Shown here in pieces: positions 36,501-61,326 of a DNA stretch of 64,000 bases (positions within the stretch are counted from its first letter, which is position 1; every line of letters begins with the position of its first letter). A program made the position numbers and the translations under genes. Origin of the DNA: a virus (lineage: Duplodnaviria; Heunggongvirae; Uroviricota; Caudoviricetes); the IMG/VR virus record IMGVR_UViG_2974574300_000001, positions 1 to 64,000 of that record. One strand, given 5' to 3'. Below the pieces are notes generated by a model. It had not been told where the DNA came from. It searched no databases and worked only from the letters and a program-made list of their open reading frames with translations.

Positions 36501-37016
36501 TCAACTTAGTTTTGCAAACTCTCCGTGGAGTTTAATAGCAGCTTCACAGTAAGCTTTATGGGCTTCTTCTTCCGTTGTGTATGTTCCTATATGTATAGTC
36601 TTGCCATTATGGTTAATCTGGGCTATCCACTTACCAGACTTGCTTCTACTTGTACCTTTTAAGTTTTTTGATGTTCTGGGTTGTCTCCTATTAGACATGT
36701 TCTGCTCTTTTGTGGCCTCTCTTAGATTGTCCCAAGCGTTATTCAAACCATCTCCATCTTTGTGGTCAATGTGTTTATCAGGCCACTTACCTGTCATCCA
36801 GAACCAAGCAATTCGGTGATTACCTGTCCTGTATCCTAAAATCTGTGTGTGCATATACACACCAGACCTTGTGCGCTTAATTGCTCCGGCTTGGCTTCCA
36901 ATGACCACCCTACTACTATGTGGAGGTCTCCCAATCCATGTTAAGACCCCTGTTTCGGGGTCATAATCTAACCAAGACTTTAACTGTTCATGTGTGAATC
37001 CACAATCTCTCATCAA
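36501..37016 (-). CDS. HNH homing endonuclease with AP2-like DNA-binding domain
   Basis: HIDHKDGDGLNNAWDNLREAT HNH motif and C-terminal GKWIAQI...GTYTTEEEAHKAY AP2-like domain; paralogs at 47411 and 60835. Confidence 0.75.
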   Translation of the reverse strand: MMRDCGFTHEQLKSWLDYDPETGVLTWIGRPPHSSRVVIGSQAGAIKRTRSGVYMHTQILGYRTGNHRIAWFWMTGKWPDKHIDHKDGDGLNNAWDNLREATKEQNMSNRRQPRTSKNLKGTSRSKSGKWIAQINHNGKTIHIGTYTTEEEAHKAYCEAAIKLHGEFAKLS

Positions 37017-37567
37017 TGTACCTCATACCAGCTCTTACCAACTTTACCAGTACCAGTTACAAGCGTTTCCTCCTTAAGACCTAAGTTTCTTGATGCCTGA
37101 CCATACATCCAGTCAATTACTGCTTTAACATCCTGTGTCATCTCTTCTGGGCACTCCCAACTATTCTCGTCGTGGTATGCTAAAAGCAATCTAGCACCAA
37201 TAGCTGGTTTTCGACCATTCAGCTTTGTAAGACCCTCTTCACAAGCCCTTCTACAAGCAAGGTTGATAGCTTCATTCTGAACCTGACTTTCCGAACCCAT
37301 GAGCAAGTAATTTAAAAGTTTGTGCGGAGATTTACACCACAACCATGCACCTGCTACCTTTACAAAACCACCCTTAGAGATTGCAGCAGTCTTACCAAAC
37401 ACCTCTTCAAGAGCCTTCTTAGTGGCTTTGAAGTCTGCTTCCAAATTATCTATCAACTTTTTAATCTTAGGAAGGCGTACAAAGTAAGTTTGCTTAGTTA
37501 AAGCACCCTCTTCAGTAGTTGCAGCTTTAATCGTCTTAGCAAACTTCTCGTCACCTGCCCCAAACAA
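37013..37567 (-). CDS. DNA polymerase (family A, T7-like), 3' exon
   Basis: begins with FGAGDEK continuing motif B; contains motif C LLAYHDE. Confidence 0.8.
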   Translation of the reverse strand: MFGAGDEKFAKTIKAATTEEGALTKQTYFVRLPKIKKLIDNLEADFKATKKALEEVFGKTAAISKGGFVKVAGAWLWCKSPHKLLNYLLMGSESQVQNEAINLACRRACEEGLTKLNGRKPAIGARLLLAYHDENSWECPEEMTQDVKAVIDWMYGQASRNLGLKEETLVTGTGKVGKSWYEVH

Positions 37568-37569
37568 TA

Positions 37570-38370
37570 CATCTGGTCAATACACTCGCAAGGTGTACCA
37601 GTTCTCTTATGAACTTCTCCGCATTTCTACGGAGTGTCGGACTATATCACGTAGCAGTGCTGCTACCGTTGCGCTTGGGATGGTCATTAGCTTACCACCC
37701 TACTCTACTCAGTTCATACGTTAAGTATGCTTTTCGATAGTCTCTGAACGTTTCTCTGTTAGGAATCTCTATAATCATGTTATTTACTCAGGTAGTCAAT
37801 TGCCCTTTGCATATTATCAACGCTATCTGCAAGCAACCCCAAAGCTCTATTGCAATTGTGGCACAACATACCTCTTACTTTTCCGGTTTTGTGGTCATGG
37901 TCAACGACAAGTTTAGCCTTATGCCGTGAGCTATTCATGATAAAACCTTCACCGCCACAAATTTGACATTTGTAATCACAGTTACGAAGTAGGGTTTCAA
38001 CCTCTTCTCTTTCTAAACCATATGTTCTCAGGTAGTAATTCTTAACTCTACCTTTCTCTCCGCAATGCGAAGAACAATAAACTTGCCTTGCTGTTCTAGG
38101 CATGAACACCTTCTCACAGCTAGGACATTTCTTAGTAAGAACCCTATGTTCTGCTCTTCTGTCAAATTTTAATACGCAACTTCTGCACCGTTTTTGATTG
38201 TATTGGTATGGTTTAAACTCTGCACCACACTCAGTACACAATCTCTCTTTGTAACCTGCCATTGTCTCTCTCCTTTGTTTTAGGAGTCCTAACAGAGACT
38301 TCGCTGCTGATTACCATGTCTTTACAGACTTAGGCTTCCAGCAATTCACAACGTTTTACATGCGCCACTG
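37570..38370 (-). mobile_element. group I intron (putative) in DNA polymerase gene
   Basis: about 800 nt separating polymerase motif B halves (IYA.. | ..FGAGDEK); boundaries compatible with exon ending in U and intron ending in G; carries HNH ORF. Confidence 0.6.
37780..38262 (-). CDS. intron-encoded HNH endonuclease (endonuclease VII-like with zinc ribbon)
   Basis: DHDHKTGKVRGMLCHNCNRALG HNH/EndoVII signature plus CxxC pairs. Confidence 0.75.
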   Translation of the reverse strand: MAGYKERLCTECGAEFKPYQYNQKRCRSCVLKFDRRAEHRVLTKKCPSCEKVFMPRTARQVYCSSHCGEKGRVKNYYLRTYGLEREEVETLLRNCDYKCQICGGEGFIMNSSRHKAKLVVDHDHKTGKVRGMLCHNCNRALGLLADSVDNMQRAIDYLSK

Positions 38371-40513
38371 ACGCATAAATACCATTCTTGGCTTTCTTAC
38401 GACCCTTACTAATTTCTTGAAGAAGGTTTGTATCCTGAGTAGCTCGACAAGTCAAGATATCTTCCTCTTTATTAAGGCTGAAGTAGATACTATTTAAAGT
38501 ATGTGCATCAGTTCCTGAGTACACCACGTACAAGTCATTTTCCGAATCATAATGCAAATACTTGTCAATCTCTGGGTTTAGATACTGGTCAAAATGTTTA
38601 CAATAGTATCTACCATCCTCTTGTTTGACAAACTCAACCTCTTCTTTACCCTCTGTCACTGCTTTGGTGAACTCTTTATCACCCATAAAGTTACACAGCA
38701 GTACAAGTTGCGCGCTATTCATATCTGCTGAAACAATATTAGTCCCTTCTTCACAAGTCCACACCTCCCGCATAGGTGCTCCATAGACAGCAGCACCAGA
38801 TGGTACGTTTACAATACCATATTGTGTCATACGCCCAGTTGAAGTACCAAACACCATTGCACCAGCACTAAGGCGACCATCAGGACGAATCTGGTTCAAC
38901 CAACCTTTTTCATCATCCTTTGAGTTCTCAATAGTTCTGCGTCTGTGCATCAAAGTATAGTATTTAGCAATCTTCTGTCCAAGCTCACCTTCAATCGTAT
39001 CATAAGATGATTCAGTAAGTTTTGGCGAAGTACGGATTAAGCAAGGCTCAAGCAAATCTGTGTACTTCTTCACAGACCAGTTATGCTCAATGTACTGGAC
39101 ACCTTCATGTTCAACATAACTCAAACCACACCGCTCAACCATTTCCTGCCACTTAGGATGTTTTGTAATCATCTTTTTATTGTCTTTGAAACGACAAACT
39201 TTGACAGGACGACCATCTGAGTCTTTCTTGTAGTTCCAGTCATCTGGAATCCAACCAACTGATTTCAAGTAGTCTTTAACAACTGCTACCTGAGTCATAC
39301 GAGAAACTTCGAACTCAATTGGTGTATATGGTGCATCAATCAAACCTGTGTAGCGACTTGACTCAAGTTCAAAGTGGTTAACGACGTGGCTGTTATAGTA
39401 CTTCACAGTTTTGACTGTTTTTACTGGTTTCCAGTCTTTGCATTTCTTACCAATCTTTGCGTTCAACTCATTGCAAATTGCACGAGCATCCTTCATTGCT
39501 ACAAAGCCTTCCTTGTACTCTTCACCAGTTACAGTGTTGGTTGGTGTATAGCAATTTCTCTTTTCAATGTTAAAAATCTTTGTAGTTGGCTTACCAAATG
39601 GCTTGATTTCATAAGTTTGCATCTCACCGTTACGTACCTGCTGACGATACTTTGTTTTAGGGTACTTGGTAATTCTCTTCAGTCCATCTGCATGACCAAA
39701 TGTTTCAACATACTCATTCCAAGCTTTTGCAAACTCTTCTCCAGTGACTTTACCTTTGGTCTTAATAGTTGGAGGAAGATGTGGTTCAACCTCTGAAGCA
39801 AGCTCATTAGTCAACTTGTCAAGTTCCTTCACATGGAACTCCATAAGCTCTTTATCAGCTTTCCAACCATTGATAGCTTGTTGACTCATCCAGAAAGATG
39901 TTTCTTTAGCTCGCATGTAGGTTTCATAAGTGTCTATGCCACACTTCTTAAGCTTGAGATACTCATTATCAAGTGCCCGTTTAGTTTTGGCGTTAATACG
40001 GATATCTTCTACAACACGAGTGAAGATTTCTGCATTCCACACACCCCAATGCTCAATCTCTGGTTTACGAACACCAACACGAGCACCCCATGCAGCCAAA
40101 CCATGAGCACCTTTATAACCCTTTGGAGTTGGTCTATCCATCCACTGAACACGAGACTGGATAAGAGAATCCTGAAAGAAATTACTCCACGGCTTACATT
40201 TTGGATTATCAAAGTTCCATAAATCCGGTGCAATGTGATTGAAGACCCACCAGTCATAACCGAGGCCGTTATGGATACAAAGTCGTTTTGCCTTTAACGC
40301 AAACTCAACACCTTCACGTAAACCACCCTTAATGTACTTAGTGTACTTGTGACCGAGGATAGGCTCATCTGTAAAGACCCATACAGGTGGCTCTTCATCG
40401 TCAGATTTATAGTCTGCAAAGGCCATTACGTGAACTTTAGTGAACTCAAGGAGTAAACCATCAGTTTCTGTATCACCAACCAAATGTAAGTTTTTAAAAT
40501 CTACGTTTTCCAT
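38330..40513 (-). CDS. DNA polymerase (family A, T7-like), 5' exon with 3'-5' exonuclease domain
   Basis: exo motif GDTETDG, HNGLGYDW, and motif B start RKKAKNGIYA at the ORF end; reading frame continues into intron to stop at 38330. Confidence 0.85.
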   Translation of the reverse strand: MENVDFKNLHLVGDTETDGLLLEFTKVHVMAFADYKSDDEEPPVWVFTDEPILGHKYTKYIKGGLREGVEFALKAKRLCIHNGLGYDWWVFNHIAPDLWNFDNPKCKPWSNFFQDSLIQSRVQWMDRPTPKGYKGAHGLAAWGARVGVRKPEIEHWGVWNAEIFTRVVEDIRINAKTKRALDNEYLKLKKCGIDTYETYMRAKETSFWMSQQAINGWKADKELMEFHVKELDKLTNELASEVEPHLPPTIKTKGKVTGEEFAKAWNEYVETFGHADGLKRITKYPKTKYRQQVRNGEMQTYEIKPFGKPTTKIFNIEKRNCYTPTNTVTGEEYKEGFVAMKDARAICNELNAKIGKKCKDWKPVKTVKTVKYYNSHVVNHFELESSRYTGLIDAPYTPIEFEVSRMTQVAVVKDYLKSVGWIPDDWNYKKDSDGRPVKVCRFKDNKKMITKHPKWQEMVERCGLSYVEHEGVQYIEHNWSVKKYTDLLEPCLIRTSPKLTESSYDTIEGELGQKIAKYYTLMHRRRTIENSKDDEKGWLNQIRPDGRLSAGAMVFGTSTGRMTQYGIVNVPSGAAVYGAPMREVWTCEEGTNIVSADMNSAQLVLLCNFMGDKEFTKAVTEGKEEVEFVKQEDGRYYCKHFDQYLNPEIDKYLHYDSENDLYVVYSGTDAHTLNSIYFSLNKEEDILTCRATQDTNLLQEISKGRKKAKNGIYASVAHVKRCELLEA

Positions 40514-40709
40514 TTTTACTCCCTCTAAAATCATTAACCCCATACATTACTGCAAAAAATTATAAAAAGCAAGTTGACAATACACTTGACAAGGTGTTAA
40601 TCTTTGCGAAGTGGGTTTTTACTTAAAAGGTTACTTAACAGTTTAACTATACAGATACTTTAAAACTCTTAAAAGATTATTTAATAGCTTTTAAAAAGCT
40701 TTAAAGTAT

Positions 40710-40726
40710 AACGTATAGAATACGTT
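40710..40726. promoter_or_regulatory. palindromic operator-like site in divergent intergenic region
   Basis: AACGTAT-AGA-ATACGTT inverted repeat between divergent replication operons. Confidence 0.4.
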
Positions 40727-40769
40727 AAGATAAAAGATTAAACTTAATAGTTACTTAAAAGAGGCTTAC

Positions 40770-41192
40770 ATGCAGAAAATGTTTGTTCACCCAGACATAG
40801 CTGACTTTGTTAGAGCTTTGCAGAAGTTGGAAGAACTTGACATTGCTGCTCAACGGGAATATGCTCACCATCACAGGAGAATGGTTGATATACAACATGA
40901 AATAGAGTTGTCTGAAAACTATGAAGATGACTTAAAATGCTCTGTATTTGAGCATATGAAAGATGTTGCTACAGCGAGACGTAAAGCTAAAGACACAGTT
41001 GCTTTACTAGATTCTCTTAAAAAGAGGTTGCAAAGTGGTACAGACCTGTGTAATCTAGCGTCACTGATTAACGATGTTGAAACTTCTTGGGATAGGCACT
41101 ATTATCCACGTTCTGAAAAGACACTTGACTTTTCTTCATCCGAAAACTTAAAATGTTCTAGAAAGAAACTTAACCAACTGAGAGAGAAATAA
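40770..41192 (+). CDS. hypothetical protein
   Basis: ORF. Confidence 0.45.
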   Translation: MQKMFVHPDIADFVRALQKLEELDIAAQREYAHHHRRMVDIQHEIELSENYEDDLKCSVFEHMKDVATARRKAKDTVALLDSLKKRLQSGTDLCNLASLINDVETSWDRHYYPRSEKTLDFSSSENLKCSRKKLNQLREK

Positions 41193-41193
41193 T

Positions 41194-41994
41194 ATGAATA
41201 TCGATGTAGAAAAGATGCTTGAAGAAAAAGGTATTGACGAAGCGTTCTTAATCAATGCTGTAGAAAGCATGGCTATGATTCTTCGTGGTAACAACTACAC
41301 AGAACAGTTTATGCCTGCAAGCTATAACTTGCCTGAAGACAAGTCTGATAACGGTGCTTTTGCAGAACAGGTTAACATGATGTTGACAGACACTACACTT
41401 GCTCTAGCATCTATTGCTGTTGGTGTTGATGCACTTGCTGAGTTTATTTTTTATGAAATGCAAAAGAATGACTATATCAGGATGTCAGACGAAGATAAGG
41501 AACTGTTACTGACTAAGGATACTGATTTCCTTATTGACATGCTTATCTCATCAACAAGTGTTGTTATGGCTGCGCTTGAGAAGCGTATGGAAGAAAAGCT
41601 GTCACGATATGAAAAGCTTGATTGGGGCGTAGAAGAATTAAGCCCACGAATCAAAGAGATTATCCAGCAAACTAAAAAGTCTTTGGAAGAAGCTGTTGAA
41701 AATGACTCTGTAGCTGATATAGAGCCACTTCAGGTGAAAGTTGCGCTAATGATTCCAGCTATCTCTACGATGATGAATATCGTTGCACTAATCCAACTTT
41801 CACAGATGATGGGTATGAGTATTGAGTTCATTGAGGAGATGACTGGTGGTGTTAGTATGCAAGCAATCAATGATGTTTTGGTGAATATTGGTGCTTCAAT
41901 CATTGAAGAGAAACTACGCATTAACTTCGGTGATGATTTTGTGAAGCAACTCTCAGCTATGGCTGAAAAAGAGTCTGCTGAGCAACTGCACTAA
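41194..41994 (+). CDS. hypothetical protein
   Basis: ORF. Confidence 0.45.
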   Translation: MNIDVEKMLEEKGIDEAFLINAVESMAMILRGNNYTEQFMPASYNLPEDKSDNGAFAEQVNMMLTDTTLALASIAVGVDALAEFIFYEMQKNDYIRMSDEDKELLLTKDTDFLIDMLISSTSVVMAALEKRMEEKLSRYEKLDWGVEELSPRIKEIIQQTKKSLEEAVENDSVADIEPLQVKVALMIPAISTMMNIVALIQLSQMMGMSIEFIEEMTGGVSMQAINDVLVNIGASIIEEKLRINFGDDFVKQLSAMAEKESAEQLH

Positions 41995-42011
41995 GCCTTT
42001 ATAAATCTTAC

Positions 42012-42037
42012 AAGCCTCCTTAGTTGGGGGCTTTTTA
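42012..42037 (+). terminator. rho-independent terminator
   Basis: AAGCCTCC-TTAGTT-GGGGGCTT hairpin followed by TTTTT. Confidence 0.55.
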
Positions 42038-42055
42038 GTAATTAATGGAGATAAA

Positions 42056-42799
42056 ATGAGTAAAATCATCGCATTTACTGGAAAGGCACGTTCTGGAAAA
42101 GACACCTCGTGCTCTATTGTGAAGAACATCTTAGAGGATGAGTACGGCTACAATGTTGCAGTAATGGCCTATGCAGACAACCTTAAGCTATCTGCATCAA
42201 AGATATTTGACCTGACTTGGAATGACCTGTATGGTGAAACTAAAGAGACTCCACAGGTTTTTGACTTATCATATCCTGAACTGATGTCAAAAGTTACGGA
42301 AGCTATGGAGTTCACCTTCAGAGATGAACGTTACCATATGGACTTCAAGCTTATGTCAGAGTTAACCGGACGATTGATTATGGAGCTTAAGAAGGTCGCT
42401 AAACCAACTCTATTGACACGTCTGGGATTTAGCAAGAAGTATAAATTCTCATCAAGACAAATTCAACAGATTTGGGGTACTGAAGTTATCCGTAAAGTTA
42501 TGGGTGACAAATTCTGGGCTAAAGACCTTGAAAAAAGAATGGTTAGATTCTATGAAATGTGCTCACTTAGAAATCAATATGGTTTTGTCTTAATCAGTGA
42601 TTTAAGATTTGACTCTGAAGCTGAATGGCTGAGTAGATTTGCACACCAAACTATTGAAGTAAAAAGAGACAATGTGGACAAAGTTTCATCACATGTTTCA
42701 GAAAATGGGATTTCTACAAAATATGAGCGTGACATTATTCATAATAATGGTACTCTTGCAGACCTTGAGAACAAGCTAAGAGCCATCATTAAAGTTTAA
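42056..42799 (+). CDS. deoxynucleoside monophosphate kinase (T4 gp1-like)
   Basis: N-terminal P-loop IAFTGKARSGKDT resembling T4 dNMP kinase. Confidence 0.65.
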   Translation: MSKIIAFTGKARSGKDTSCSIVKNILEDEYGYNVAVMAYADNLKLSASKIFDLTWNDLYGETKETPQVFDLSYPELMSKVTEAMEFTFRDERYHMDFKLMSELTGRLIMELKKVAKPTLLTRLGFSKKYKFSSRQIQQIWGTEVIRKVMGDKFWAKDLEKRMVRFYEMCSLRNQYGFVLISDLRFDSEAEWLSRFAHQTIEVKRDNVDKVSSHVSENGISTKYERDIIHNNGTLADLENKLRAIIKV

Positions 42800-42807
42800 A
42801 AGAGAGA

Positions 42808-43008
42808 ATGAAGATGAGAGTAAAAGACAATTTTAAAGTTATTGACCACCGTTTAGTGGAACTCTCATCTCTTTCCAATGAGGTAATGATTGAACGTCTT
42901 AAGAGAGTTGAATCACGAAGGAAAGAGATTGCAGATGAAATTCATGAACTGGACAAGATTGAAAATGGATTGAAGGCAGAACTACAACGAAGAGGTGCTA
43001 ATGTCTAA
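42808..43008 (+). CDS. hypothetical protein
   Basis: ORF. Confidence 0.4.
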   Translation: MKMRVKDNFKVIDHRLVELSSLSNEVMIERLKRVESRRKEIADEIHELDKIENGLKAELQRRGANV

Positions 43009-44986: not shown

Positions 44987-45242
44987 TAGTTATAAAAGAG
45001 AGGGGTTCACACCCTTCTTTGAAGAAAAAAGTTTAAATAAATTTCAGGAAGAGTGTTTGACAAAGATTGATAGGTTCTATAGAATGCTCCTTATGAAATG
45101 CGATGGGGAAGTTGAGATAAAAGAAGATTTCCACCAAAGCATAATTACAGTCATCATTGCGCTGCCTCAGCATAATATTAGTTGGCTGTTTATAATTAAA
45201 GAAAATGTGTTTGAATATCAAGTATATCGGAGAATATCATGA
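44949..45242 (+). CDS. hypothetical protein
   Basis: ORF overlapping helicase 3' end; start uncertain. Confidence 0.3.
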   Translation: MRMQMTAHSKLSDSYKREGFTPFFEEKSLNKFQEECLTKIDRFYRMLLMKCDGEVEIKEDFHQSIITVIIALPQHNISWLFIIKENVFEYQVYRRIS

Positions 45243-45388
45243 AACACTCTAAAGCATTTGAAAAAGTTTTTGGGGATTCCTTAAAAGCCACTGCTGGAAA
45301 ACCAGCAAAATACTATGAAGAAAAACGTGTAAGAACTGGAAAAACTGCACGTAAAGCAGCTTCTAAAGATAAGCACAACTTCCAGTAA
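45239..45388 (+). CDS. small basic protein
   Basis: 49 codon ORF with GGAGA RBS, ATGA overlap with upstream stop. Confidence 0.3.
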   Translation: MKHSKAFEKVFGDSLKATAGKPAKYYEEKRVRTGKTARKAASKDKHNFQ

Positions 45389-45395
45389 TTAGTAT

Positions 45396-45424: not shown

Positions 45425-45460
45425 TGGTACTCTTCATAAATTGAGATAGAGGTTTAAATA

Positions 45461-46386: not shown

Positions 46387-47433
46387 ATGGAGAAGTACAC
46401 ATTAACAAAACTTCCCGATTCAGTTACACATGTTTTTATTGACTCTGACAGCATTGCCTATAAAGGTGCTTGTGTAGTTGAGAAAGCAAAATATAAATAC
46501 GTCAATAAACTCACAGCAGAAGAATCTGAACCATTTGACAATGCGAAAGATGCTGCAAGATGGTTAGCAGACCAGAGAATCCTTGTGGAAGAACTTGGCC
46601 TGACATTTGATGAAGATGAATGGGAAAGACAGACTTGGAAAGAAGCTAAGAGTGAGAAAGAAGCTATCATGGCGACTCAACAGGTGCTTCAGGAATGGCT
46701 TAAGGTTGTTGGGAAAGAGAGAACTTGGGTAGGTTATTTAACAGAGAAAGGTGTGCATAAACATAAAGACATTAAAGGTCTTGAGCACCAATATCAAGGT
46801 AACCGCAAAGATGCTGTCACACCAACACACTTAGTTGCTTGTCGTGAGTATCTTCTGTCAAGACCAGAGTTCAAATTGATTCTTGATGGATTTGAAGCTG
46901 ACTCTATCGTTATTGCTAAAGCTGAAAAAATGGGAAAAAAGGCTGCCTTAATGAGTATTGATAAAGACCTTCGCCAAGCTGAAGGGACTTACTGCATTGA
47001 TATGACCTATGAAAAGTCACCTTTGATTTTCATTGCTGACAACAACGTAGGTGAAATTTGGGATTGCCCAATAAAATCTACACCAAAAGCTAAGAAGACA
47101 GTCGGGGTAGGTTTTAAATTTCTTTGCTATCAAGCCGTGGCTGGTGATAATGCGGATAATTATTTTGGCTTAAAGGGTGTTGGCAAGGTTACTATAATGA
47201 AAGCCCTTGAAGGTAAAACCACCTACAAAGAGTGTCTTGATGCAATTTATGAGCTTTATGCTAAGAAAGAGTCATATACTTATGTCTCGTGGGATGGTCA
47301 AACAATTACCAGAACACCTTTAGAGTTAATGCAACAACACTTTTTCTTAGCTTATCAGGAAAGAAATAAGAAAGACGATTTCACTTTTGATAAGTATGGA
47401 TGGACACCAAATGTTAACCCAACAAACTCTTAA
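46387..47433 (+). CDS. 5'-3' exonuclease / flap endonuclease
   Basis: PIN-like acidic residues (FIDSDSIAY, IDKD) and H3TH motif GDNADNYFGLKGVGKVT. Confidence 0.7.
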   Translation: MEKYTLTKLPDSVTHVFIDSDSIAYKGACVVEKAKYKYVNKLTAEESEPFDNAKDAARWLADQRILVEELGLTFDEDEWERQTWKEAKSEKEAIMATQQVLQEWLKVVGKERTWVGYLTEKGVHKHKDIKGLEHQYQGNRKDAVTPTHLVACREYLLSRPEFKLILDGFEADSIVIAKAEKMGKKAALMSIDKDLRQAEGTYCIDMTYEKSPLIFIADNNVGEIWDCPIKSTPKAKKTVGVGFKFLCYQAVAGDNADNYFGLKGVGKVTIMKALEGKTTYKECLDAIYELYAKKESYTYVSWDGQTITRTPLELMQQHFFLAYQERNKKDDFTFDKYGWTPNVNPTNS

Positions 47434-47910
47434 AGAATACCTACACTATGACCCGAAACAGGGGTCTTTACTTGGTTAGTTGATAGAAAAGGTAAGGCCA
47501 AAGCTGGCTCAGTAGCAGGTTTTAAACACCATAGCGGTTATATCTATATAAAACTCTTCGGAAAAAGATATGCAGCACACAGGCTGGCATTCTTGTATAT
47601 GAAAGGATACCTCCCAAAATTTGTTGACCACAAGAATTGTATCAGATACGACAACTGGTTCGACAATTTGAGAGAGTGTAGCAGGTCAGACAACAACTGT
47701 AATGCAGTCAAAAGAAGAGATAATAAGTCTGGTGTGAAGGGTGTATATTACCACAAGCAAAGAGGTAGATGGGCTGCACAAGTTAAGCATAATAAAGTTT
47801 GCTACCATCTAGGTCTATTTGACTCTGTTGCTGAGGCTGAAGAAGTTGTCAAAAAGAAAAGAGAAGAACTTCATAGAGAGTTTACAAATCACGGAGAAGC
47901 TCATGAATGA
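47411..47910 (+). pseudogene. HNH-AP2 homing endonuclease gene disrupted by frameshift
   Basis: frame A MLTQQTLKEYLHYD then frame B PETGVFTWLVDRKGK...VDHKNCIRYDNWFDNLRE...GVKGVYY; junction at C-run GACCCG near 47450. Confidence 0.55.
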
Positions 47911-48407
47911 TTAAAGTTAAAGGTTTTGGGAGTTGTCCAACTTATGGACATTGGATTTCACTATGTGGTGAAGTTGACCCAGCAAAGCACTTTGGTTTTG
48001 TCTACCTAGTGTACTGCAAAAAGACTGGACAGTACTATTTGGGTAAAAAACAGCTTAACAGTGTGACCAAAAGAAAAGTTGCTGGTAAGACTCGGAAGAA
48101 GATAGTCACTAAGGAAAGTGATTGGATGACTTATGAGACTTCTTCTGAGTATATCAAAAAAGATATTGAAAGTTTTGGAAAAGAATTTTTTGACTTTTAC
48201 ATTATCCAAACCTACTACACAAAAGGTGGTCTAGTTTATGGTGAAGCAAACCTTCAACATAAGTTCGATGTAATGACAAAAAGGATTGACTCGAAGCTCA
48301 GACTCTTCTACAATGCCAATATTGCAGCAATTAAGTTTATTACCAAAGAAACTTATGAAGATGCTGAAAAAAGAATCCATAAGGTAATGAAAGTAAATTG
48401 TGCTTGA
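47907..48407 (+). CDS. GIY-YIG endonuclease-like protein
   Basis: FGFVYLVYCKKTGQYYLGKK resembles GIY-(10)-YIG motif. Confidence 0.45.
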   Translation: MIKVKGFGSCPTYGHWISLCGEVDPAKHFGFVYLVYCKKTGQYYLGKKQLNSVTKRKVAGKTRKKIVTKESDWMTYETSSEYIKKDIESFGKEFFDFYIIQTYYTKGGLVYGEANLQHKFDVMTKRIDSKLRLFYNANIAAIKFITKETYEDAEKRIHKVMKVNCA

Positions 48408-52324: not shown

Positions 52325-52379
52325 TTTTAACAACTATGAGGGTCGTAAAAGACCCTCTAAAAATAACTTTGGAGAGACC

Positions 52380-52637
52380 ATGAAAGATTTAATAGAAAAA
52401 CATGAGCGACCAATATACTTGCTCCACAAGCCTCGGAAAACGATGTACTATGTGGGTAGCACAGACATGATGATAAAGCAAAATGATGACTCATGGGTTG
52501 CTGGTATCTCTTACATCTCTACAGCAGATGGTAAAATTTATGCAAGACCTTATGAGATGTTTAACAAAGAAAATTGGGAAGTTTTAGACAGAAAACAAGC
52601 CTTAGAAATGATAAAGAAAGGAGAAATCACACTATGA
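52380..52637 (+). CDS. hypothetical protein
   Basis: ORF between nrdA and nrdB. Confidence 0.4.
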   Translation: MKDLIEKHERPIYLLHKPRKTMYYVGSTDMMIKQNDDSWVAGISYISTADGKIYARPYEMFNKENWEVLDRKQALEMIKKGEITL

Positions 52638-53707: not shown

Positions 53708-53949
53708 TGACTTATGTAATTTACTCCAAAACTGGATGCCCTCAGTGCGAGACCGCAAAGAATTTTGCAAAAGCTCGTGGTATTGACCATGTTGTGAGAA
53801 TGTTAGGGCAGGATTATGAGCTATCAGAACTAATGGATATTGCACAGATGCCAGTTCGTCAGATGCCATTCATCATGAAAACTGATGGACAAAACCTAAA
53901 ACCTGTTGGGACGCTACAGAATTTTATGGCAGAGGTGAATAATGCTTAA
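53707..53949 (+). CDS. glutaredoxin / NrdH-like redoxin
   Basis: CPQC active site at N-terminus. Confidence 0.65.
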   Translation: MTYVIYSKTGCPQCETAKNFAKARGIDHVVRMLGQDYELSELMDIAQMPVRQMPFIMKTDGQNLKPVGTLQNFMAEVNNA

Positions 53950-54148
53950 ACGCCTTTGGGAAGGTTTGGTTGTTGATGCACCAGCTATTGTGATTGGTAT
54001 GCTTATTGTTAACCTATTTACTGACTTTGAACAAGGTTCATTGTTTGGAGCCATGTTACTATGGGTTATCTTTGAAATATTAGAGATACAGTTAGGTATC
54101 ACTGAAAACCTAAGAGAACTCTTTGCGAAGTTTTCTAAAAAGATTTAA
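53942..54148 (+). CDS. small membrane protein
   Basis: hydrophobic 68 aa ORF. Confidence 0.4.
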   Translation: MLKRLWEGLVVDAPAIVIGMLIVNLFTDFEQGSLFGAMLLWVIFEILEIQLGITENLRELFAKFSKKI

Positions 54149-54155
54149 AATGAAA

Positions 54156-54178
54156 GGGTCTCTTCGGAGACCTTTTTA
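54156..54178 (+). terminator. rho-independent terminator
   Basis: GGGTCTC-TTCG-GAGACC hairpin followed by TTTTT. Confidence 0.65.
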
Positions 54179-54196
54179 GCATGTAAAGGGGCAATA

Positions 54197-55393
54197 ATGA
54201 ACAAAGTACAGATTATTAAAAAGAATGGCTCACTCGAAGAACCTGATATCAAAAAAGTTTTAGCAGCAGTCACAAAGTCAGCTAACAGAGTTGGTTATAA
54301 AGAGCTTCCACCAGATGTTACTCAAGCTCTTGAGTCAGCATTTATGAGGATTCTGGTAAAGTCCACTAAGCAGAATAATTTACTCATTTCAGTAAATGAT
54401 ATTCACAGTATTGTTGAGGGTGCTTTGGCAGAAGTCAATCACGAGATTTATGAGTCTTACTCAACATATAGAAATTACCGTAAAGAAGTTGCTCAGAATT
54501 GGGATGAACTCTACCAGAAGACCAAAGATACACTCTTCTTAGGTGACCGAGAAAACGCTAATTTTGACAGCAGTTTAATTTCTACAAAAGGTTCAATTAT
54601 TCGTGGTTATCTGACTAAAGAAATCTTTAAACAGTACCATTTAACACCAGAGGAACTTGAAGCCATTGAAAAAGGGTTTATCTATATCCATGATTTAAGA
54701 GACCTAATTTTTGGTGGTATCAACTGTTGCCTGTTTGACATTGGTAAAGTCCTGAAAGGTGGCTTTGAAATGTCTGGCATTGAATATTGTGAACCGAAGT
54801 CTGTACTGTCAGCCTTACAGGTTATTGGTGACGTAGTTCTTTCAGCAACTGCACAGCAATTTGGTGGCTTTACTTTAGCAGAGATTGATAAGGTACTTGT
54901 GCCGTATGCTAAGAAGTCTCTACGCTATCATGCTGAGAAAGCAACAGCTTATGGTATTCCTAAAGAACATTACCACAACTATGTCATGGAGCAGCTACAG
55001 ATTGAATTAACTCAAGGTTTTCAGTCTCTTGAAATGAAACTAAATACTGTACCTTGTAGCCGTGGTGATTTTGCATTCACAACTTTGACATTCGGGTTGC
55101 TTGACTCAGATATGTCTAATGAAGATAACCGACTGCAATACATGATTGCGAGCACTCTCCTAGATGTTCGTATGAATGGACAAGGTAAGAGCAAGAAGCC
55201 TGTTGTATTCCCTAAATTGGTTTATATTTATGACCAGAAGAGACACAATGAGAATATCTGTCAAGGCCACCTGTACAGTAAAGCTATTGAGTGTTGCTCT
55301 AAAGCTATGTATCCAGATTTCTTAAGTGTATCTGGACATGGTGCTGTAGCAGAGGCTTTTGAGCGTTCTGGCAAGGTAATTTCCCCGATGGGT
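54197..55393 (+). CDS. nrdD: anaerobic ribonucleotide reductase (class III), 5' exon
   Basis: ORF ends ...VISPMG then stop inside intron; downstream exon continues CRAFLSPY. Confidence 0.8.
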
Positions 55394-56135
55394 TAACAGG
55401 CTCTATAGCTCATCTAAAACGTGCCTAAACAGGGAAACTCTACAGATGTAGACAATCCTGTGCTAAATGATGTACGATGTAAGAAACTATACAACATAGG
55501 AGTCTTACATGCCAAACTATCACGTCACTGAAGATGGAAAAGTCTTTAGGGAAAATGGTGTAGAGCTTACGCAGTGGAAATCCAACACTGGGTATATGAA
55601 AGTGAGGTTTTACGGTAAGAAGAATCGTGACATGTATGTCCACAGGTTAGTTGCTGAGAAATATGTACCTAACCCAAATAATCTTCCAATTGTAAAACAT
55701 AAGGACGATAACAAACTAAATAACCACGCATCTAACTTAGAATGGGGTACTCATTCTGAGAATGCTAAAGAAGGTTATGAGAACGGATGCTACAAGTTCC
55801 ACAAGCGTTCATATGCCGTGAAAGCCACACACAAAGTGACAAAGGAAGTTATTGTTGCTAAGTCAATACGAGAGTTATCCAATATACTTGGACACAATCG
55901 CAAGACCATCTCTTCAATATTGAAGGGTGTAAAAGAGCATAATAACTTCGAATATGAGTTTGAATACATCTAAATGCCGAACGACTAACCGTGATGAATG
56001 TAGCGGTGTAGGGTCAAGCGACTCGAAATGGTACGCTACTTAGAAATAAGTAGAAGATATAGTCTGGACTTACTGGCGACAGTAAGCAGCTTGAATAAAG
56101 CGGGGTAAGCTTAGCGAACTTACCTGAACAACAAG
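55394..56135 (+). mobile_element. group I intron in nrdD
   Basis: exon ends with T, intron ends with G, in-frame join PMG|CRAFL; 5' core CTAAACAGGGAAACTCTACAGATGTAGACAATCCTGTGCTAAAT is, as best I recall, close to the T4 td intron core. Confidence 0.7.
55509..55973 (+). CDS. intron-encoded HNH homing endonuclease
   Basis: HKDDNKLNNHASNLEWGTHSEN HNH motif; located inside nrdD intron. Confidence 0.7.
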   Translation: MPNYHVTEDGKVFRENGVELTQWKSNTGYMKVRFYGKKNRDMYVHRLVAEKYVPNPNNLPIVKHKDDNKLNNHASNLEWGTHSENAKEGYENGCYKFHKRSYAVKATHKVTKEVIVAKSIRELSNILGHNRKTISSILKGVKEHNNFEYEFEYI

Positions 56136-57083
56136 TGTAGAGCATTTTTATCACCATACCATAACGAATATGGTGAAGAGTTTTATGTAGGTCGTGCTAA
56201 CATTGGTGCTGTATCTTTGAACTTACCAATGATTTACCAGTATTCTAAAGAGAATGGCTTAGATTTCTGGAAAGAGCTTGATAAGTACCTAGAAATGATT
56301 CGCAGCTTCCACAAGAAACGTTACGAAATGATTGCTAATATGCCAGCAAGTTCTAACCCTCTTGCATTCACACAAGGTGGTCTGTACAAAGGGAATAAGA
56401 AACCTACTGACAAGGTTGGCTGGGATATCGTGAAGTCCTTCACAGCTTCTTTTGGGGTTACTGCGCTTGATGAGCTAGATGTTCTTGCTGAAGGTAAACG
56501 ACTTCATGAAGTTGGAAGCTGTAGTTTTGCATATGATGTTCTGGAATATATCAACATGAAGACTGAAGAGTTTAAAAATGAAGATGGCTTCTTATATGCA
56601 GTCTATGGCACTCCAGCAGAATCACTTTGTGGAACTCAGCTAAAACAGTTCAGAGATATGTTTGGCGTTATCAAAGGCGTTTCTGACAAGGAATACTTTA
56701 CAAACAGCTTCCATATGAATGTTGCAGCCGACATTACACCATTTGAGAAGCAGGACTTAGAAGAACCCTTCTTCCATATCTGTAGAGGCGGCAGAATCCA
56801 GTATGTAAGAGTGGCTAATCCAGAAAACTTACCAGCACTTAAGAGTTGTATTACAAGAGGGATGTTGAAAGGTTTCTATCAGGGACTTAACTTTGACTTA
56901 GCAATCTGTGAGCATTGTGGCAACAGACCAAAGGCTGATGTTGAAGAATGTGAGGTTTGTCATTCACACGATATCTCTGTGATTAACAGGGTGTGCGGGT
57001 ACTTGTCATTCACAAAAATTAAAGGTCAGTCTCGAATGAATGACGCTAAGATGGCAGAAATTAAGGATAGGGTTTCTATGTAG
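56136..57083 (+). CDS. nrdD: anaerobic ribonucleotide reductase (class III), 3' exon
   Basis: C-terminal zinc ribbon CEHCG..CEVC and glycyl-radical motif RVCGYLS. Confidence 0.8.
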   Translation, partial: CRAFLSPYHNEYGEEFYVGRANIGAVSLNLPMIYQYSKENGLDFWKELDKYLEMIRSFHKKRYEMIANMPASSNPLAFTQGGLYKGNKKPTDKVGWDIVKSFTASFGVTALDELDVLAEGKRLHEVGSCSFAYDVLEYINMKTEEFKNEDGFLYAVYGTPAESLCGTQLKQFRDMFGVIKGVSDKEYFTNSFHMNVAADITPFEKQDLEEPFFHICRGGRIQYVRVANPENLPALKSCITRGMLKGFYQGLNFDLAICEHCGNRPKADVEECEVCHSHDISVINRVCGYLSFTKIKGQSRMNDAKMAEIKDRVSM

Positions 57084-57090
57084 AATACAA

Positions 57091-57648
57091 ATGAATTACG
57101 AACTAATATATAATGCAATTATTAAGAAGGCACATTCTGAAAGGGGTGTGCCTCTTACATACTACAAATGTCAAGGTAAGGGTTATGAAAGACACCATAT
57201 CATACCAGTGTGTCTAGGTGGCGATAAAATTAGTGGAGATAATATTGCTTTACTTACACCTAGAGAGCATTATGTAGCTCATAAATTACTGGTTAAGATG
57301 TATCCAAACAATCATAAGTTATGGTTTGCATGGAACAGGTTAGCTCATGATGGCCTAGATAGGAAAATATCATCCAGAGACTATGAAAAGGTAAGGGCTT
57401 TGAACTCGAAAGCTTCATCCATTGTGAATAAAGGTAGGGTTTTCACTGAAGAACATCGAAGACGATTAGGAGAATCTCAAATAGGTAATACAAAATCAAA
57501 AGGTTGTAAAAGGTCTATAGAAACAAGGAAGAGGATGTCAGAAGCCGGAAAAAAGCCAAAGAAAAAGAAAACTTGCCATCATTGTGGTATGACTGGTGGT
57601 GCTGGTAACATGACTCGATATCATTTTGACAATTGTAAGAAAAAATAA
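57091..57648 (+). CDS. HNH endonuclease with NUMOD3-like repeats
   Basis: ERHHIIPVCLGGDKISGDNIALLTPREHYVAH HNH motif; C-terminal basic repeats and CHHCG zinc finger. Confidence 0.55.
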   Translation: MNYELIYNAIIKKAHSERGVPLTYYKCQGKGYERHHIIPVCLGGDKISGDNIALLTPREHYVAHKLLVKMYPNNHKLWFAWNRLAHDGLDRKISSRDYEKVRALNSKASSIVNKGRVFTEEHRRRLGESQIGNTKSKGCKRSIETRKRMSEAGKKPKKKKTCHHCGMTGGAGNMTRYHFDNCKKK

Positions 57649-57722
57649 CCTTATGTAAAACTTGACAAGGCGGTGTAGGTCTTGATAGGCTTACATCACC
57701 TTTTTATTGGTGAGGTAACTAT

Positions 57723-58208
57723 ATGAATTACATGGAGATTAGACCATTTGACACAGCTAATGGTGAAGGGGTTCGTGTAAGCCTCTTCGTAGCTGGTTGT
57801 AAGCATCACTGTGAAGGCTGCTTTAACAGGGAGTCTTGGAAGTTTAATGCTGGTAAAGAGTTTACTTATGCAAACCTTTACGGGATTCTAAGACTTTTGG
57901 AAGATGATTCTTTAAGTGGATTATCTATTCTTGGTGGAGAACCACTAGATGACCGTAACGTTGAAGAGGTCACAAAGATTTGCCAGAAGGTAAAGTCTAT
58001 CTACCCAGAAAAATCTATCTGGCTCTGGACAGGTTTTCAGTTACACGAAAAAATTCACCTAGATGTGATGAAATATGTTGACGTGGTGATTGATGGTAAG
58101 TATGATTCATCTAAACCAACAGTTAAACCATATCGTGGTTCTGATAACCAAAACCTCTGGAGAAAAGAGTATGGGTGGCAAGGTGATTGTCAGTGGAGAG
58201 CCGAGTAA
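57723..58208 (+). CDS. nrdG: anaerobic ribonucleotide reductase activating protein
   Basis: radical SAM cluster motif CKHHCEGC near N-terminus; adjacent to nrdD. Confidence 0.8.
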   Translation: MNYMEIRPFDTANGEGVRVSLFVAGCKHHCEGCFNRESWKFNAGKEFTYANLYGILRLLEDDSLSGLSILGGEPLDDRNVEEVTKICQKVKSIYPEKSIWLWTGFQLHEKIHLDVMKYVDVVIDGKYDSSKPTVKPYRGSDNQNLWRKEYGWQGDCQWRAE

Positions 58209-58548
58209 GTCTCGTCGTAGAGTAGGTTACGGAAAAGGTGAGATAATGGTTCTTTCTTTTAACAGTGCTTTATTAGGTACTTACAAAGTTAAGACCGAAC
58301 TCCTTGATGAGTGGAGAAAGTATACAAACTCACTTTTCGGTAATGTTGGAATGGAAGCCTTAGCAGAGATTGAGAAGGCTGGAACATTTGAAGTTGTCGG
58401 TAAAGGTAACTACACAATGTTCTACAAAACAAATTTAAACGTTGGTGACAGTATTGTTGGTGTCACTGAAGAAGAACTTAAAACATTTTGTGAAAAGATT
58501 GAGAGAGATACGAAATGGGACTCTGGAACAGTTTTAAATCAAAAGTAA
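58171..58548 (+). CDS. hypothetical protein
   Basis: ORF trimmed to ATG with GGAGA RBS. Confidence 0.4.
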   Translation: MGGKVIVSGEPSKSRRRVGYGKGEIMVLSFNSALLGTYKVKTELLDEWRKYTNSLFGNVGMEALAEIEKAGTFEVVGKGNYTMFYKTNLNVGDSIVGVTEEELKTFCEKIERDTKWDSGTVLNQK

Positions 58549-58772
58549 AAGCAGCACTAGCTTCATTAGGTATGCTCACTGGTGTTGATGTGACTCATCT
58601 TATGCAGAACTTTAAGATGGATGAGAAGCTGGCTAATGAGATTATGAAAAGTATCTATGTAGGCCGTGGTAAAGGTGGTAAGAAACAAGCCCATCGTCCG
58701 TCTGGTGCAGCAGCTATTAAACGAGCAGCTAAGAAAGCTCGTAACCGTAAACGTAATAAGAAGGCTAAATAA
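58515..58772 (+). CDS. small basic protein
   Basis: Lys/Arg-rich C-terminus. Confidence 0.4.
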   Translation: MGLWNSFKSKVKAALASLGMLTGVDVTHLMQNFKMDEKLANEIMKSIYVGRGKGGKKQAHRPSGAAAIKRAAKKARNRKRNKKAK

Positions 58773-58774
58773 TC

Positions 58775-59095
58775 ATGAGCAAAATCTATAACACTCGCAA
58801 ATTACAGATTTTCGTACTGTGCCAGTTTATGGCTAAAGAATATAACTTCTACTATTGTGGTACAGGTTTTATTAGTGATGATGATGGTTCATATCTACCA
58901 TTTAAAGAAGCTGTGAAGCTCTTTAATGAAGAGAAAAACTCTAAGAAAGATATTGAAAAGGTTAAGCTAACCTACAGCAAGAAAGATAAGAAGATTATCT
59001 GCCTAGATAACTTTGTAAAAGTTACTGGAGAAGCAAAAGAGTTTATGGATGAGAGTGAGATTTCATTCACAAGCATCTTGAAAGTAGCTCAGTAA
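58775..59095 (+). CDS. hypothetical protein
   Basis: ORF. Confidence 0.4.
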   Translation: MSKIYNTRKLQIFVLCQFMAKEYNFYYCGTGFISDDDGSYLPFKEAVKLFNEEKNSKKDIEKVKLTYSKKDKKIICLDNFVKVTGEAKEFMDESEISFTSILKVAQ

Positions 59096-59107
59096 ACAGA
59101 TACTATA

Positions 59108-59137
59108 AGGGAACTGTAAAGGTTCCCTTTTTATTTT
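59108..59137 (+). terminator. rho-independent terminator
   Basis: AGGGAAC-loop-GTTCCCT hairpin followed by TTTTTATTTT. Confidence 0.6.
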
Positions 59138-59146
59138 GGAGATAAA

Positions 59147-59662
59147 ATGTATCTGTCAAACCTGAAACGTTCGGCTGCAATGTCAGTCCTAAGACTCAGC
59201 TTTGAGGAACGTCAAGAGTTCATTGACTCCCACCAATACGACCCTTCTAACTCGAATCACATGGTTCTTTGGAATCGTGATAACTTCCGTGAAAGAGCAC
59301 TTGTCCGTTATTACCCACACTACACAATAGATAACCTGTATGAATGGTGTGTTGTGAAGAACACTATTGCAACACTGAACAATCTTTGCAGGTATACAGG
59401 TAAGCAAGCATTTACATTAGGCCACCACAAACCTGTTACAAAGGGTGGTGAGCATCACTGTGCAAACTGGTTTATCCAGACTAAGCTCGATAACCAGAAG
59501 CAAGGAGATAACCTTCTAAGCACACCTAAGATGACCTATGAAGAGCAAGAGAAATATATCAAAAATAATATGCCAGATGTGCTTGACAACAACTATACAG
59601 ATTTGGCAATATCTCTCCTGTTGAAGTTCGAGACAGTTTATAGGGCAACTTATAATGGCTAA
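59147..59662 (+). CDS. HNH nuclease-like protein
   Basis: LGHHKPVTKGGEHHCANW...N..K motif resembling HNH. Confidence 0.4.
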   Translation: MYLSNLKRSAAMSVLRLSFEERQEFIDSHQYDPSNSNHMVLWNRDNFRERALVRYYPHYTIDNLYEWCVVKNTIATLNNLCRYTGKQAFTLGHHKPVTKGGEHHCANWFIQTKLDNQKQGDNLLSTPKMTYEEQEKYIKNNMPDVLDNNYTDLAISLLLKFETVYRATYNG

Positions 59663-59933
59663 AGAGAAGTGGAAGATTTTACCATTAGTCAGTGAAGGTG
59701 GTAATGGTTGTGAAATGTACATGATACGTGGTCATGTTCCAGAACCAATTGCACTTGAGATGGTAAACAACTTTACAGATGGCTCTTACAAAGACTTAGG
59801 GGAGCCAACTATAAAGCAGCAATGGGTAAAGCCTGTACCAGACAGCACAGGTAACTGTAGTGTACTTTATCACGTTGTAGACCCTGCAAAATGCAAATCT
59901 GCAATGGCAGTAACAAACGTAACTTTTGATTGA
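59655..59933 (+). CDS. hypothetical protein
   Basis: ORF. Confidence 0.4.
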   Translation: MAKEKWKILPLVSEGGNGCEMYMIRGHVPEPIALEMVNNFTDGSYKDLGEPTIKQQWVKPVPDSTGNCSVLYHVVDPAKCKSAMAVTNVTFD

Positions 59934-59944
59934 GAGAGAAAACT

Positions 59945-60826
59945 ATGAAAACATCTATCCGTGTTACAGTTCATTCACCAACTAAAGGGACTCATGAAGA
60001 AGAGTTTAACATCGTCCAATTTCCTTCTGGTGAGATTGGTGGACATTTTTCACCAGAGTTTGTTGATTTTACTGCTTATGCTGCATCATCCATCAACAAC
60101 GTGATTATGATTGTAAAGGGTTATGACAAAGACACATTATTTGCTGTGGCACTTGCTAAAGAGGCAATTGATGATTTAGTACCTCATAAGTTTGCTATGA
60201 AGACTGCTATCTTTTACTATTTGCCAAATGCACGTTACGACCGTCACATGTTTAAAGGCGATGCAGCAGCTTTGAAAGTGTTTGCACAACAGGTTAATGC
60301 AATGGGTTTTGATGCAGTCTGTGCAGTTGACCCTCATAGTTACGTTCCAGATAACCTTTTCAACTGCTTCCAGAGTATTCCTCAAAAGGAGATTGCAGTC
60401 CACTATGCAAATGACCCTCTGATTGATTACTTAGTAGCCCCAGATGCAGGTGCTTCTAAGAAGATTGCAGAGACTGCTAAAGAGGTGGATAAACCATATA
60501 TCACAATGTCTAAAGTACGCAACCTTAAGACTGGTGAAATAACTGGTATGCGAATCCTTGATGATGTTGATTTGACAGATAAAACTGTCATGATTCTTGA
60601 TGATATTTGTGATGGTGGTCGAACCTTCGTAGAAGCAGCGAAACATCTTCGTGAAGCAGGTGCAAAACGTGTGGAACTTTATGTAACACATGGTATCTTC
60701 TCTAAAGATGTTGAAAACCTTCTTGACAATGGTATCGACCATATTTACACTACAAACTCTTTAGGCGAAGCTAAAGACCGTGGCTTAACACATTACAGTC
60801 AAGTTACTGTAGCAAACCTTGATTAG
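59945..60826 (+). CDS. prs: ribose-phosphate pyrophosphokinase (PRPP synthetase)
   Basis: PRTase motif VMILDDICDGGRT, VDPHS and APDAGASKK regions resembling Prs. Confidence 0.7.
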   Translation: MKTSIRVTVHSPTKGTHEEEFNIVQFPSGEIGGHFSPEFVDFTAYAASSINNVIMIVKGYDKDTLFAVALAKEAIDDLVPHKFAMKTAIFYYLPNARYDRHMFKGDAAALKVFAQQVNAMGFDAVCAVDPHSYVPDNLFNCFQSIPQKEIAVHYANDPLIDYLVAPDAGASKKIAETAKEVDKPYITMSKVRNLKTGEITGMRILDDVDLTDKTVMILDDICDGGRTFVEAAKHLREAGAKRVELYVTHGIFSKDVENLLDNGIDHIYTTNSLGEAKDRGLTHYSQVTVANLD

Positions 60827-60834
60827 GTAACAGT

Positions 60835-61326
60835 ATGAATAAGGGTTATTTTGAAAGATACCTAATATATGAACCAGATACAGGTTTATTAATTTGGAGA
60901 GTAACCCTTTGCAGTACCGCTATTGCTGGTAATGTGGCTGGCACAAGGTCTAAGAAGGGTTATATCCAAGTCCAGATAAATAAGAAGAGGTACTATGCAC
61001 ATAATATTGCATGGATTATGTCTGGAGGTGAGATACCAAGTGGATATGAGATAGACCACATAGACCTTGATAAATCTAATAATAAGTTGGAGAATTTAAG
61101 ACTTAGCACAAAGTCACAAAATCAGAGGAATAGGGGTATATACAAGAATAATAAAACTGGTGTGAAGGGTGTAAGTTTTTGTAAACAAACAGGTCTTTAC
61201 AAAGCAAGAGTCATGCTTTACCATAAAGAATACTTTTGTGGAAGATTTAAAACGGTAGAAGAAGCAAAAGAAGCTGTAATTAAAAAGCGAATAGAACTTC
61301 ATGGTGAGTTTGCAAGACATAACTAA
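60835..61326 (+). CDS. HNH-AP2 homing endonuclease
   Basis: EIDHIDLDKSNNKLENLR HNH motif and C-terminal AP2-like GVKGV...EEAKEAV...LHGEFA. Confidence 0.75.
   Translation: MNKGYFERYLIYEPDTGLLIWRVTLCSTAIAGNVAGTRSKKGYIQVQINKKRYYAHNIAWIMSGGEIPSGYEIDHIDLDKSNNKLENLRLSTKSQNQRNRGIYKNNKTGVKGVSFCKQTGLYKARVMLYHKEYFCGRFKTVEEAKEAVIKKRIELHGEFARHN

Follow-up and report, generated by a model that had tools for sequence, protein, structure and literature searches.

Predicted homing endonuclease genes and group I introns in the replication and nucleotide-metabolism module of a Felix O1-like phage

Six open reading frames (ORFs) in a 64,000-nt phage sequence, positions 1 to 64,000 of IMG/VR record IMGVR_UViG_2974574300_000001 (the whole stretch analysed, hereafter the window), very probably behave as mobile homing endonuclease genes (HEGs). 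Two of the six, named like the others by their first coordinate (36501, 37780, 47411, 55509, 57091 and 60835), appear to lie inside group I introns, one in the DNA polymerase gene (pol) and one in nrdD, and together they would make this part of the window a HEG-rich replication and nucleotide-metabolism module (Table 1). Two further nuclease-like ORFs in the same region, 47907 and 59147, are instead fixed core genes outside the mobile set. An earlier, sequence-only reading of the region had listed all eight ORFs as nuclease genes, each next to or inside an essential gene, and had proposed active homing and marker exclusion against related phages.

The 24.8-kb region that holds these ORFs matched 344 phage records, with PMBT20 and VSe11, both Salmonella phages, matching best (97.2% identity across its whole length), and sub-segments covering several genes are 100% identical to contigs of the Salmonella phages SBA-1781 and SPT-1. 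From these matches we identify the window as a Felixounavirus genome, that of a Felix O1-like myovirus of Salmonella and E. coli.

Table 1. Predicted features of the replication and nucleotide-metabolism module, in window coordinates
Feature	Coordinates	Strand	Support
Candidate free-standing HNH_3 + AP2 HEG, directly downstream of pol	36501-37016	-	Pfam HNH_3 53.9 bits + AP2; PHROG 99 E=4e-64
DNA polymerase exon 2	37013..37569	-	Pfam DNA_pol_A; intron-less relatives continuous across junction
Predicted group I intron, 801 nt, in pol motif B	37570..38370	-	Rfam RF00028 26 bits in window copy
Candidate intron-encoded Endonuclease VII-type HEG, P6 loop of pol intron	37780..38262	-	Pfam Endonuclease_7 70.8 bits
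DNA polymerase (family A) exon 1	38371..40543	-	tblastn matches end at residue 724 of the 737-aa ORF in most relatives
Candidate free-standing HNH_3 + AP2 HEG, downstream of 5'-3' exonuclease gene	47411..47910	+	Pfam HNH_3 + AP2, frameshifted
Stand-alone SegE-type GIY-YIG nuclease-domain protein, 166 aa, core gene	47907..48407	+	Pfam PF19835 93.8 bits
nrdD exon 1	54197..55393	+	Exon-intron comparison with relatives and T4-like NrdD
Predicted group I intron, 742 nt, between Gly and Cys codons of SPMG-CRAF	55394..56135	+	Rfam RF00028 33 bits in window copy
Candidate intron-encoded HNH_3 HEG, P6 region of nrdD intron	55509..55973	+	Pfam HNH_3 41.2 bits; PHROG
nrdD exon 2	56136..57083	+	Exon-intron comparison with relatives and T4-like NrdD
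Candidate free-standing Mob-like HNH + NUMOD3 HEG, between nrdD and nrdG	57091..57648	+	NUMOD3 21.6 bits; PHROG 655 'homing endonuclease' E=9e-57
Core ORF, PHROG 3500, invariant HNH-like motif	59147..59662	+	In 202 records and all sampled relatives
Candidate free-standing HNH_3 + AP2 HEG, between prs and nadV	60835..61326	+	Pfam HNH_3 69.6 bits + AP2; PHROG

Distribution and insertion sites of the endonuclease genes

All eight ORFs are present where the sequence-only reading had placed them, and domain searches upheld a nuclease assignment for seven. Matches were read against curated cutoffs of 24.8 bits for HNH_3, 23.6 for Endonuclease_7, 25 for SegE_GIY-YIG and 20.4 for NUMOD3, and against the gathering score of 50 for Rfam RF00028. 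We regard six of the eight as well-supported HNH-superfamily HEGs; the earlier count of at least seven HNH-type ORFs included 59147, which has a weak HNH-like motif only. Catalytic motifs can be read in the translations of 36501 (IDHKDG..NN..NL....N), 55509 (VKHKDD..NN..NL), 60835 (IDHID...NN..NL), 57091 (RHHIIP..GGD...N....EH) and 47411 (VDHKN...DN..NL, where the HNH_3 match is a fragment), as well as in 37780 (DHDHKTG...CHNCN), whose family, Endonuclease_7, belongs to the HNH/beta-beta-alpha-Me superfamily. 57091 is homologous to the Mob endonucleases of T4, with 39% identity to MobD and 41% to MobE over the HNH domain (tblastn). NCBIfam returned no match for any candidate ORF. The clustering described by the earlier reading is real: the other 39 kb of the window yielded no additional nuclease gene when searched by phmmer with the eight ORFs as queries and by two scans each of Pfam and PHROG, and a search for HEGs in the tRNA and structural regions gave none.

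Insertion sites were compared across 29 genomes, comprising 27 IMG/VR genomes in which both loci were recovered, PMBT20 and Felix O1, and GenBank records carrying each window allele were counted at a query coverage of at least 80%, with the ~202 records that contain core ORF 59147 as the reference. Each of the six HEGs occurs in only ~8-30% of the ~200 related genomes (17-60 records, against 202 for the core ORF), the window alleles being found in 17 records for 37780, 41 for 47411, 42 for 36501, 47 for 57091, 59 for 55509 and 60 for 60835. This sporadic presence goes together with precise empty sites for all six, a combination seen for neither 47907 nor 59147.

The gene downstream of pol, whose ATG overlaps the polymerase stop codon, forms a mobile cassette of about 36505-37008; nine genomes have an empty site, a 17-nt gap with window position 37009 joined to 36504, fifteen carry HNH alleles of ~490-545 nt, and five have inserts of other lengths (214-232 and 735-759 nt). 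Window position 38371 is joined directly to 37569 in the relatives that have no intron in pol (21 genomes); five genomes have this intron with its ORF, one has it without, and two gave no score with the anchor method, one of them being Felix O1, in which pol is annotated as uninterrupted. The site after the exonuclease gene is empty (36 nt) in 15/29 genomes and occupied in 14. At the nrdD intron site, 18 genomes are intron-less and join 55393 to 56136, nine have the intron with its ORF and two have it ORF-less. Empty sites between nrdD and nrdG (23 genomes, against six occupied) join 57085 to 57652, and those between prs and nadV (21, with seven occupied and one unscored) join 60824/5 to 61327. 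All six polymorphic sites are filled in the window and, among the 29 genomes compared with it, only in PMBT20.

Several of these genes are more alike between genomes than the DNA around them. 36501 is 95.4% identical in one relative (L056), where the adjoining pol gene is only ~70% identical, and 60835 is 90% identical in relatives with a 79-82% backbone and 100% identical in VpaE1 (backbone 95%). A single base aside, Felix O1, PMBT20 and the window have identical copies of 47411, whereas their flanks differ. For 47411, 57091 and 60835, flank similarity is 5-15 points higher in close relatives with the HEG than in those without it, at equal backbone identity. In pol, the last ~930 nt of the spliced gene begin ~370 nt before the intron site and run to the stop codon. 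Most relatives match this segment at only 70-85% identity, PMBT20 among them, with 97-99% identity to the window further upstream; the three relatives with the same intron-HEG allele match it at 89-97%. A second allele of the pol-intron HEG, 75% identical to that of the window, occurs in PMBT20 and EC6 with its own flanks. Other HNH alleles occupy the post-pol site in Felix O1 and elsewhere.

Flank patterns of this kind are what double-strand-break repair with co-conversion would be expected to leave. Homing with co-conversion underlies marker exclusion in T4 (PMC2988022). During a mixed infection, each endonuclease would cleave the allele of a co-infecting relative that lacks the HEG, close to the point where its own gene inserts, and repair would then copy the HEG, or the intron with its HEG, along with donor flanking sequence; with the introns spliced from the mRNA, the interrupted essential genes would remain functional. 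The proposal of active homing seems reasonable for the six, given their sporadic presence, their exact empty sites, HEG identities that can exceed those of the backbone and the co-conversion-like flanks, and does not carry over to 47907 and 59147, found in each of the 29 genomes with divergence at the backbone rate. That the six also mediate marker exclusion is something we infer by comparison with T4.

47411 had been called a pseudogene, and its frame is indeed broken as sequenced. The change is the loss of one C from a CCCC run near 47446, in a gene otherwise identical to the intact copies of PMBT20 and Felix O1. The tail-fibre gene (window 27333-29676), a single gene of 781 aa in VSe11, is likewise broken near 28669: a 2-nt deletion in a G run (GGG in VSe11, G in the window) leaves ORFs of 453 and 311 aa. 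Since a viable phage is unlikely to have a broken tail-fibre gene, homopolymer sequencing error is a serious alternative for both frameshifts.

Further variation was seen around these sites. In relatives (L039, L044 and L063) the post-pol site holds at least three distinct HNH_3 + AP2 alleles, which have in common just their last ~70-150 nt, coding for the C-terminal ...EEAHKAYCEAAIKLHGEFAKLS. At the nrdD-nrdG gap (window 57705-57723), the window and PMBT20 are without 490-1230 bp carried by all other sampled relatives, a segment that contains Felix O1 ORF118-120, with genes for a hypothetical protein of 131 aa and a small membrane protein. The idea that this extra DNA is another HEG was rejected: its products are small membrane and hypothetical proteins, inspection showed nothing nuclease-like, and no nuclease is annotated there in Felix O1. 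Most relatives share only ~86% identity with the window over the 5' end of nrdG, and the ORFs just downstream of that gene (window 58204-58653) are swapped for unrelated ~400-bp alleles in many of them, making a variable spot with no recognisable endonuclease.

Beyond the module, the window runs from 21 tRNA genes through the structural module to the replication and nucleotide-metabolism module. The tRNA cluster (2154-6395) lies upstream of the terminase gene and has a 261-aa DUF7217 ORF embedded at 5439-6224. The sign of GC skew switches at ~30300 and ~40600, the edges of a minus-strand gene block from thyA to pol, and so tracks the direction of transcription.

The interruptions of pol and nrdD

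The sequence-only reading had placed 37780 and 55509 next to or inside essential genes and had not recognised that they lie within what we identify as group I introns, in P6 loops. The assignment comes from ORF-less copies in relatives, which exceed the RF00028 gathering score: the 268-nt copy in pol of BPS17W1 scores 60.8 bits and the 316-nt copy in nrdD of EC6 scores 53.2 bits. The corresponding cores in the window are nearly the same sequences, with 261/267 positions identical for pol (97.8%) and 314/316 for nrdD (99.4%). The pol core is found in 95 records and the nrdD core in 92. The pol intron showed only short core similarity to the introns of other phages.

Both elements have the expected boundaries. 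Each is preceded by U at -1 and ends in G (...CAGAUG in pol, ...AACAAG in nrdD), and in each a six-base P1 can be drawn, between exon AUGCGU and the guide sequence GCGCAU in pol and between exon AUGGGU and GCUCAU in nrdD, each exon hexamer ending at the splice site in the U, which is paired to G. Removal of 38370..37570 restores the reading frame exactly and yields ...RKKAKNGIYALLFGAG, the junction RKKAKNGIYA-LLFGAG of family A polymerase motif B (a hyphen marks the junction), for which T7 has RDNAKTFIYGFLYGAG. The last 13 codons of the 737-aa pol ORF are then read-through into the intron. Removal of 55394..56135 also restores the frame exactly and gives ...SPMG-CRAF, aligned with VSPMGCRSF of T4-like NrdD; the Cys after the junction is the thiyl-radical cysteine, Cys290 in T4 NrdD numbering. 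Both predicted spliced products agree with the homologues that have no intron. We infer that both introns are spliced out of the mRNA. An intein origin of the split genes was rejected, the inserts being out of frame with a stop codon immediately or at most 13 codons past each 5' splice site. Our literature searches found no paper that names the pol or nrdD interruptions of Felix O1-like phages as introns, group I or otherwise, although the labels given to the parts by GenBank annotators are consistent.

The nrdD intron has a clear relative in T4-like phages. Three blocks of its core align, in the same order, with the nrdD intron of the T4-like phage HY03 (identities 81%, 97.6% and 72.5%), and at least one change in an aligned stem is compensatory (ACAGGG/CCUGU versus ACGGGG/CCCGU). 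It shares with the T4 nrdD (sunY) intron, which encodes I-TevII, the host gene, the collinear core and the guide sequence GCUCAU. The two differ in position, the T4-type intron lying 119 codons upstream (between residues 280 and 281 of the window NrdD, against 399 and 400), and in cargo, the T4-type intron having a GIY-YIG endonuclease near its 3' end where that of the window has an HNH_3 gene in P6 (PMC2988022). The 5' exon hexamers AUGAGU (T4-type) and AUGGGU (window) would both pair with GCUCAU, and this would give the intron a plausible way to have moved between sites.

The ORF-less nrdD intron of EC6 type (L005 11198-11513, and also L020) keeps a 12-codon mini-ORF, MPNNFEYEFEYI with its stop, made of the first three and last nine HEG codons. 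A clean in-frame deletion has removed the HEG from this intron type.

Core genes and competing explanations

The presence of 47907 and 59147 in every relative, with divergence at the backbone rate, marks them as core genes outside the mobile set. The insertion-site comparison, which recovered exact empty sites for the other six, turned up no relative lacking either ORF. 47907 was found in all 58 loci, including those of distant genera with pol only ~60% identical at the protein level, and the identities of both ORFs follow the backbone, at ~90-99% in close relatives and ~78-82% in distant ones. The earlier description of 47907 as GIY-YIG-like was correct as far as the domain goes: the match to PF19835 (SegE_GIY-YIG) spans profile positions 10-123 of 123, and the FVY...YYLG motifs are visible. 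The protein has no DNA-binding extension, with 166 aa against a catalytic-domain profile of 123 positions. Both the Felix O1 RefSeq record and PHROG 447 call it 'NAD synthetase', apparently a misannotation that has been propagated. 59147 has the invariant motif GH[H/Y]..P..GG.HH..NW.IQ..DNQ and a weak PHROG match to HNH proteins, and it matches no HNH-type profile above a curated threshold. Profile comparisons gave no supported nuclease fold for 59147, hhalign found nothing between its family and the 57091 HNH protein, and phmmer searches of PDB sequences with 59147 or 47907 as query returned spurious matches only. Word-indexed homologue searches for both ORFs retrieved close Felixounavirus relatives only, so that the profiles could not be widened. 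At most, 47907 and 59147 would be domesticated relatives of HEGs.

It is very improbable, in our judgement, that all eight ORFs are active mobile homing endonucleases, as first proposed. The strong SegE_GIY-YIG match of 47907 and the HNH-like motif and weak PHROG match of 59147 speak for this view, but the two ORFs occupy the same position in every sampled relative, with backbone-like divergence even where pol has fallen to ~60% protein identity, and 59147 is without a supported nuclease fold and 47907 without a DNA-binding extension. Less credible still is that pol and NrdD are truly split into two polypeptides with no RNA splicing, in the manner of Aeromonas phage Aeh1, whose nrdA is split by mobE. 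Many GenBank records do annotate two separate CDSs, and published descriptions refer to a 'split nrdD gene' with a homing endonuclease in between (PMC4837284). Against this stand the ORF-less interrupting sequences that score above the group I covariance-model threshold, the U at -1, terminal G and six-base P1 of each element, the restoration in frame of motif B and of the PMGC active-site motif upon excision, and the homology of the nrdD intron core with the T4-type nrdD intron.

The six HEGs could also be old, vertically inherited and inert, with a patchy distribution left by repeated deletion rather than by ongoing homing. Clean ORF deletions within introns, of which the EC6 mini-ORF is an example, would be expected under such a history, as would the frameshifted copy of 47411 and the remnant-sized inserts at the post-pol site; 57091 in a distant relative is moreover 72% identical, equal to the backbone there. 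We nevertheless consider this improbable, given HEG identities well above those of the flanks on diverged backbones (95% versus ~70% for 36501, 90% versus ~80% for 60835), the identity of 47411 in Felix O1, PMBT20 and the window despite differing flanks, and the association of different HEG alleles with their own divergent exon flanks. Some of the same material does weigh against mobility of the six HEGs and the intron assignments that go with it. The contrast in flank identity could partly stem from shared ancestry of the HEG-bearing genomes, the ORF-less introns and the 214-232-nt post-pol remnants mean that loss also shapes the pattern, and one HEG (47411) is frameshifted as sequenced. The intron copies of the window fall below the Rfam threshold (26 and 33 bits versus 50), low scores that arise because the ORF insert interrupts the covariance-model alignment. 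Homing of the six remains the reading that we prefer.

A more elaborate scenario is rather unlikely, and we offer it tentatively as a whole. The nrdD intron may be a sunY-type intron of T4 that was relocated within nrdD to the catalytic-Cys codon, through guide-directed ectopic insertion by reverse splicing, and then captured a different HEG; separately, 47907 and 59147 may be domesticated endonucleases with a fixed role in the Ounavirinae, for example in attacking host or competitor DNA.

Relation to known systems and implications

HEG abundance in Felix O1-like phages is already documented, and the window is a well-populated example. Whichard et al. (2010) described Felix O1 with six HNH genes and no introns (PMC3185647), and Bardina et al. 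reported nrdD split by a homing endonuclease in some relatives, UAB_Phi87 and FSL SP-107 (PMC4837284). Felix O1 belongs to the same genus and has the same module, with ORF95, ORF106 and ORF128 at the post-pol, post-exonuclease and prs-nadV sites, and its ORF106 is identical to the 47411 gene of the window save for the frameshift. It differs in having no introns, no HEG between nrdD and nrdG and a different HNH allele after pol. None of the published accounts of Felix O1, UAB_Phi87 and FSL SP-107 recognises the interruptions as group I introns. What the present analysis adds is modest: definitions of the introns, core status for 47907 and 59147, and the link to the T4 nrdD intron.

Comparable arrangements occur in more distant phages. 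The free-standing endonucleases of T4 include mobC (HNH) in the nrdG/nrdD gap, mobE between nrdA and nrdB, and SegG (PMC2988022). Like mobC, 57091 sits between nrdD and nrdG, and more generally the window shares with the T4 Mob and Seg genes an intergenic placement beside conserved nucleotide-metabolism genes, with some start codons overlapping the upstream stop. T4 belongs to another phage family, and cleavage sites and marker exclusion have been demonstrated there, whereas the genes of the window are known from sequence. Group I introns with HNH endonucleases are also found in phage DNA polymerase genes, namely those of SPO1 and SP82 (I-HmuI) and of the T7-like phages PhiI and W31. These cases too involve a family A polymerase, a conserved catalytic motif that is interrupted and an HNH-superfamily endonuclease in a peripheral loop; the pol-intron endonuclease of the window differs in being of Endonuclease VII type.

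These results leave current understanding of homing unchanged. They bear mainly on how genomes are annotated and compared in a group of phages that serves in Salmonella typing and biocontrol. In annotation, the 'split' pol and nrdD are best treated as intron-containing genes, and phylogenies should be built with HEG sites and co-converted flanks masked out; the last ~930 nt of pol are mosaic. Finally, the guide sequence shared by introns at different nrdD sites, T4-type and Felix-type, may serve as a small natural test case for the spread of group I introns.

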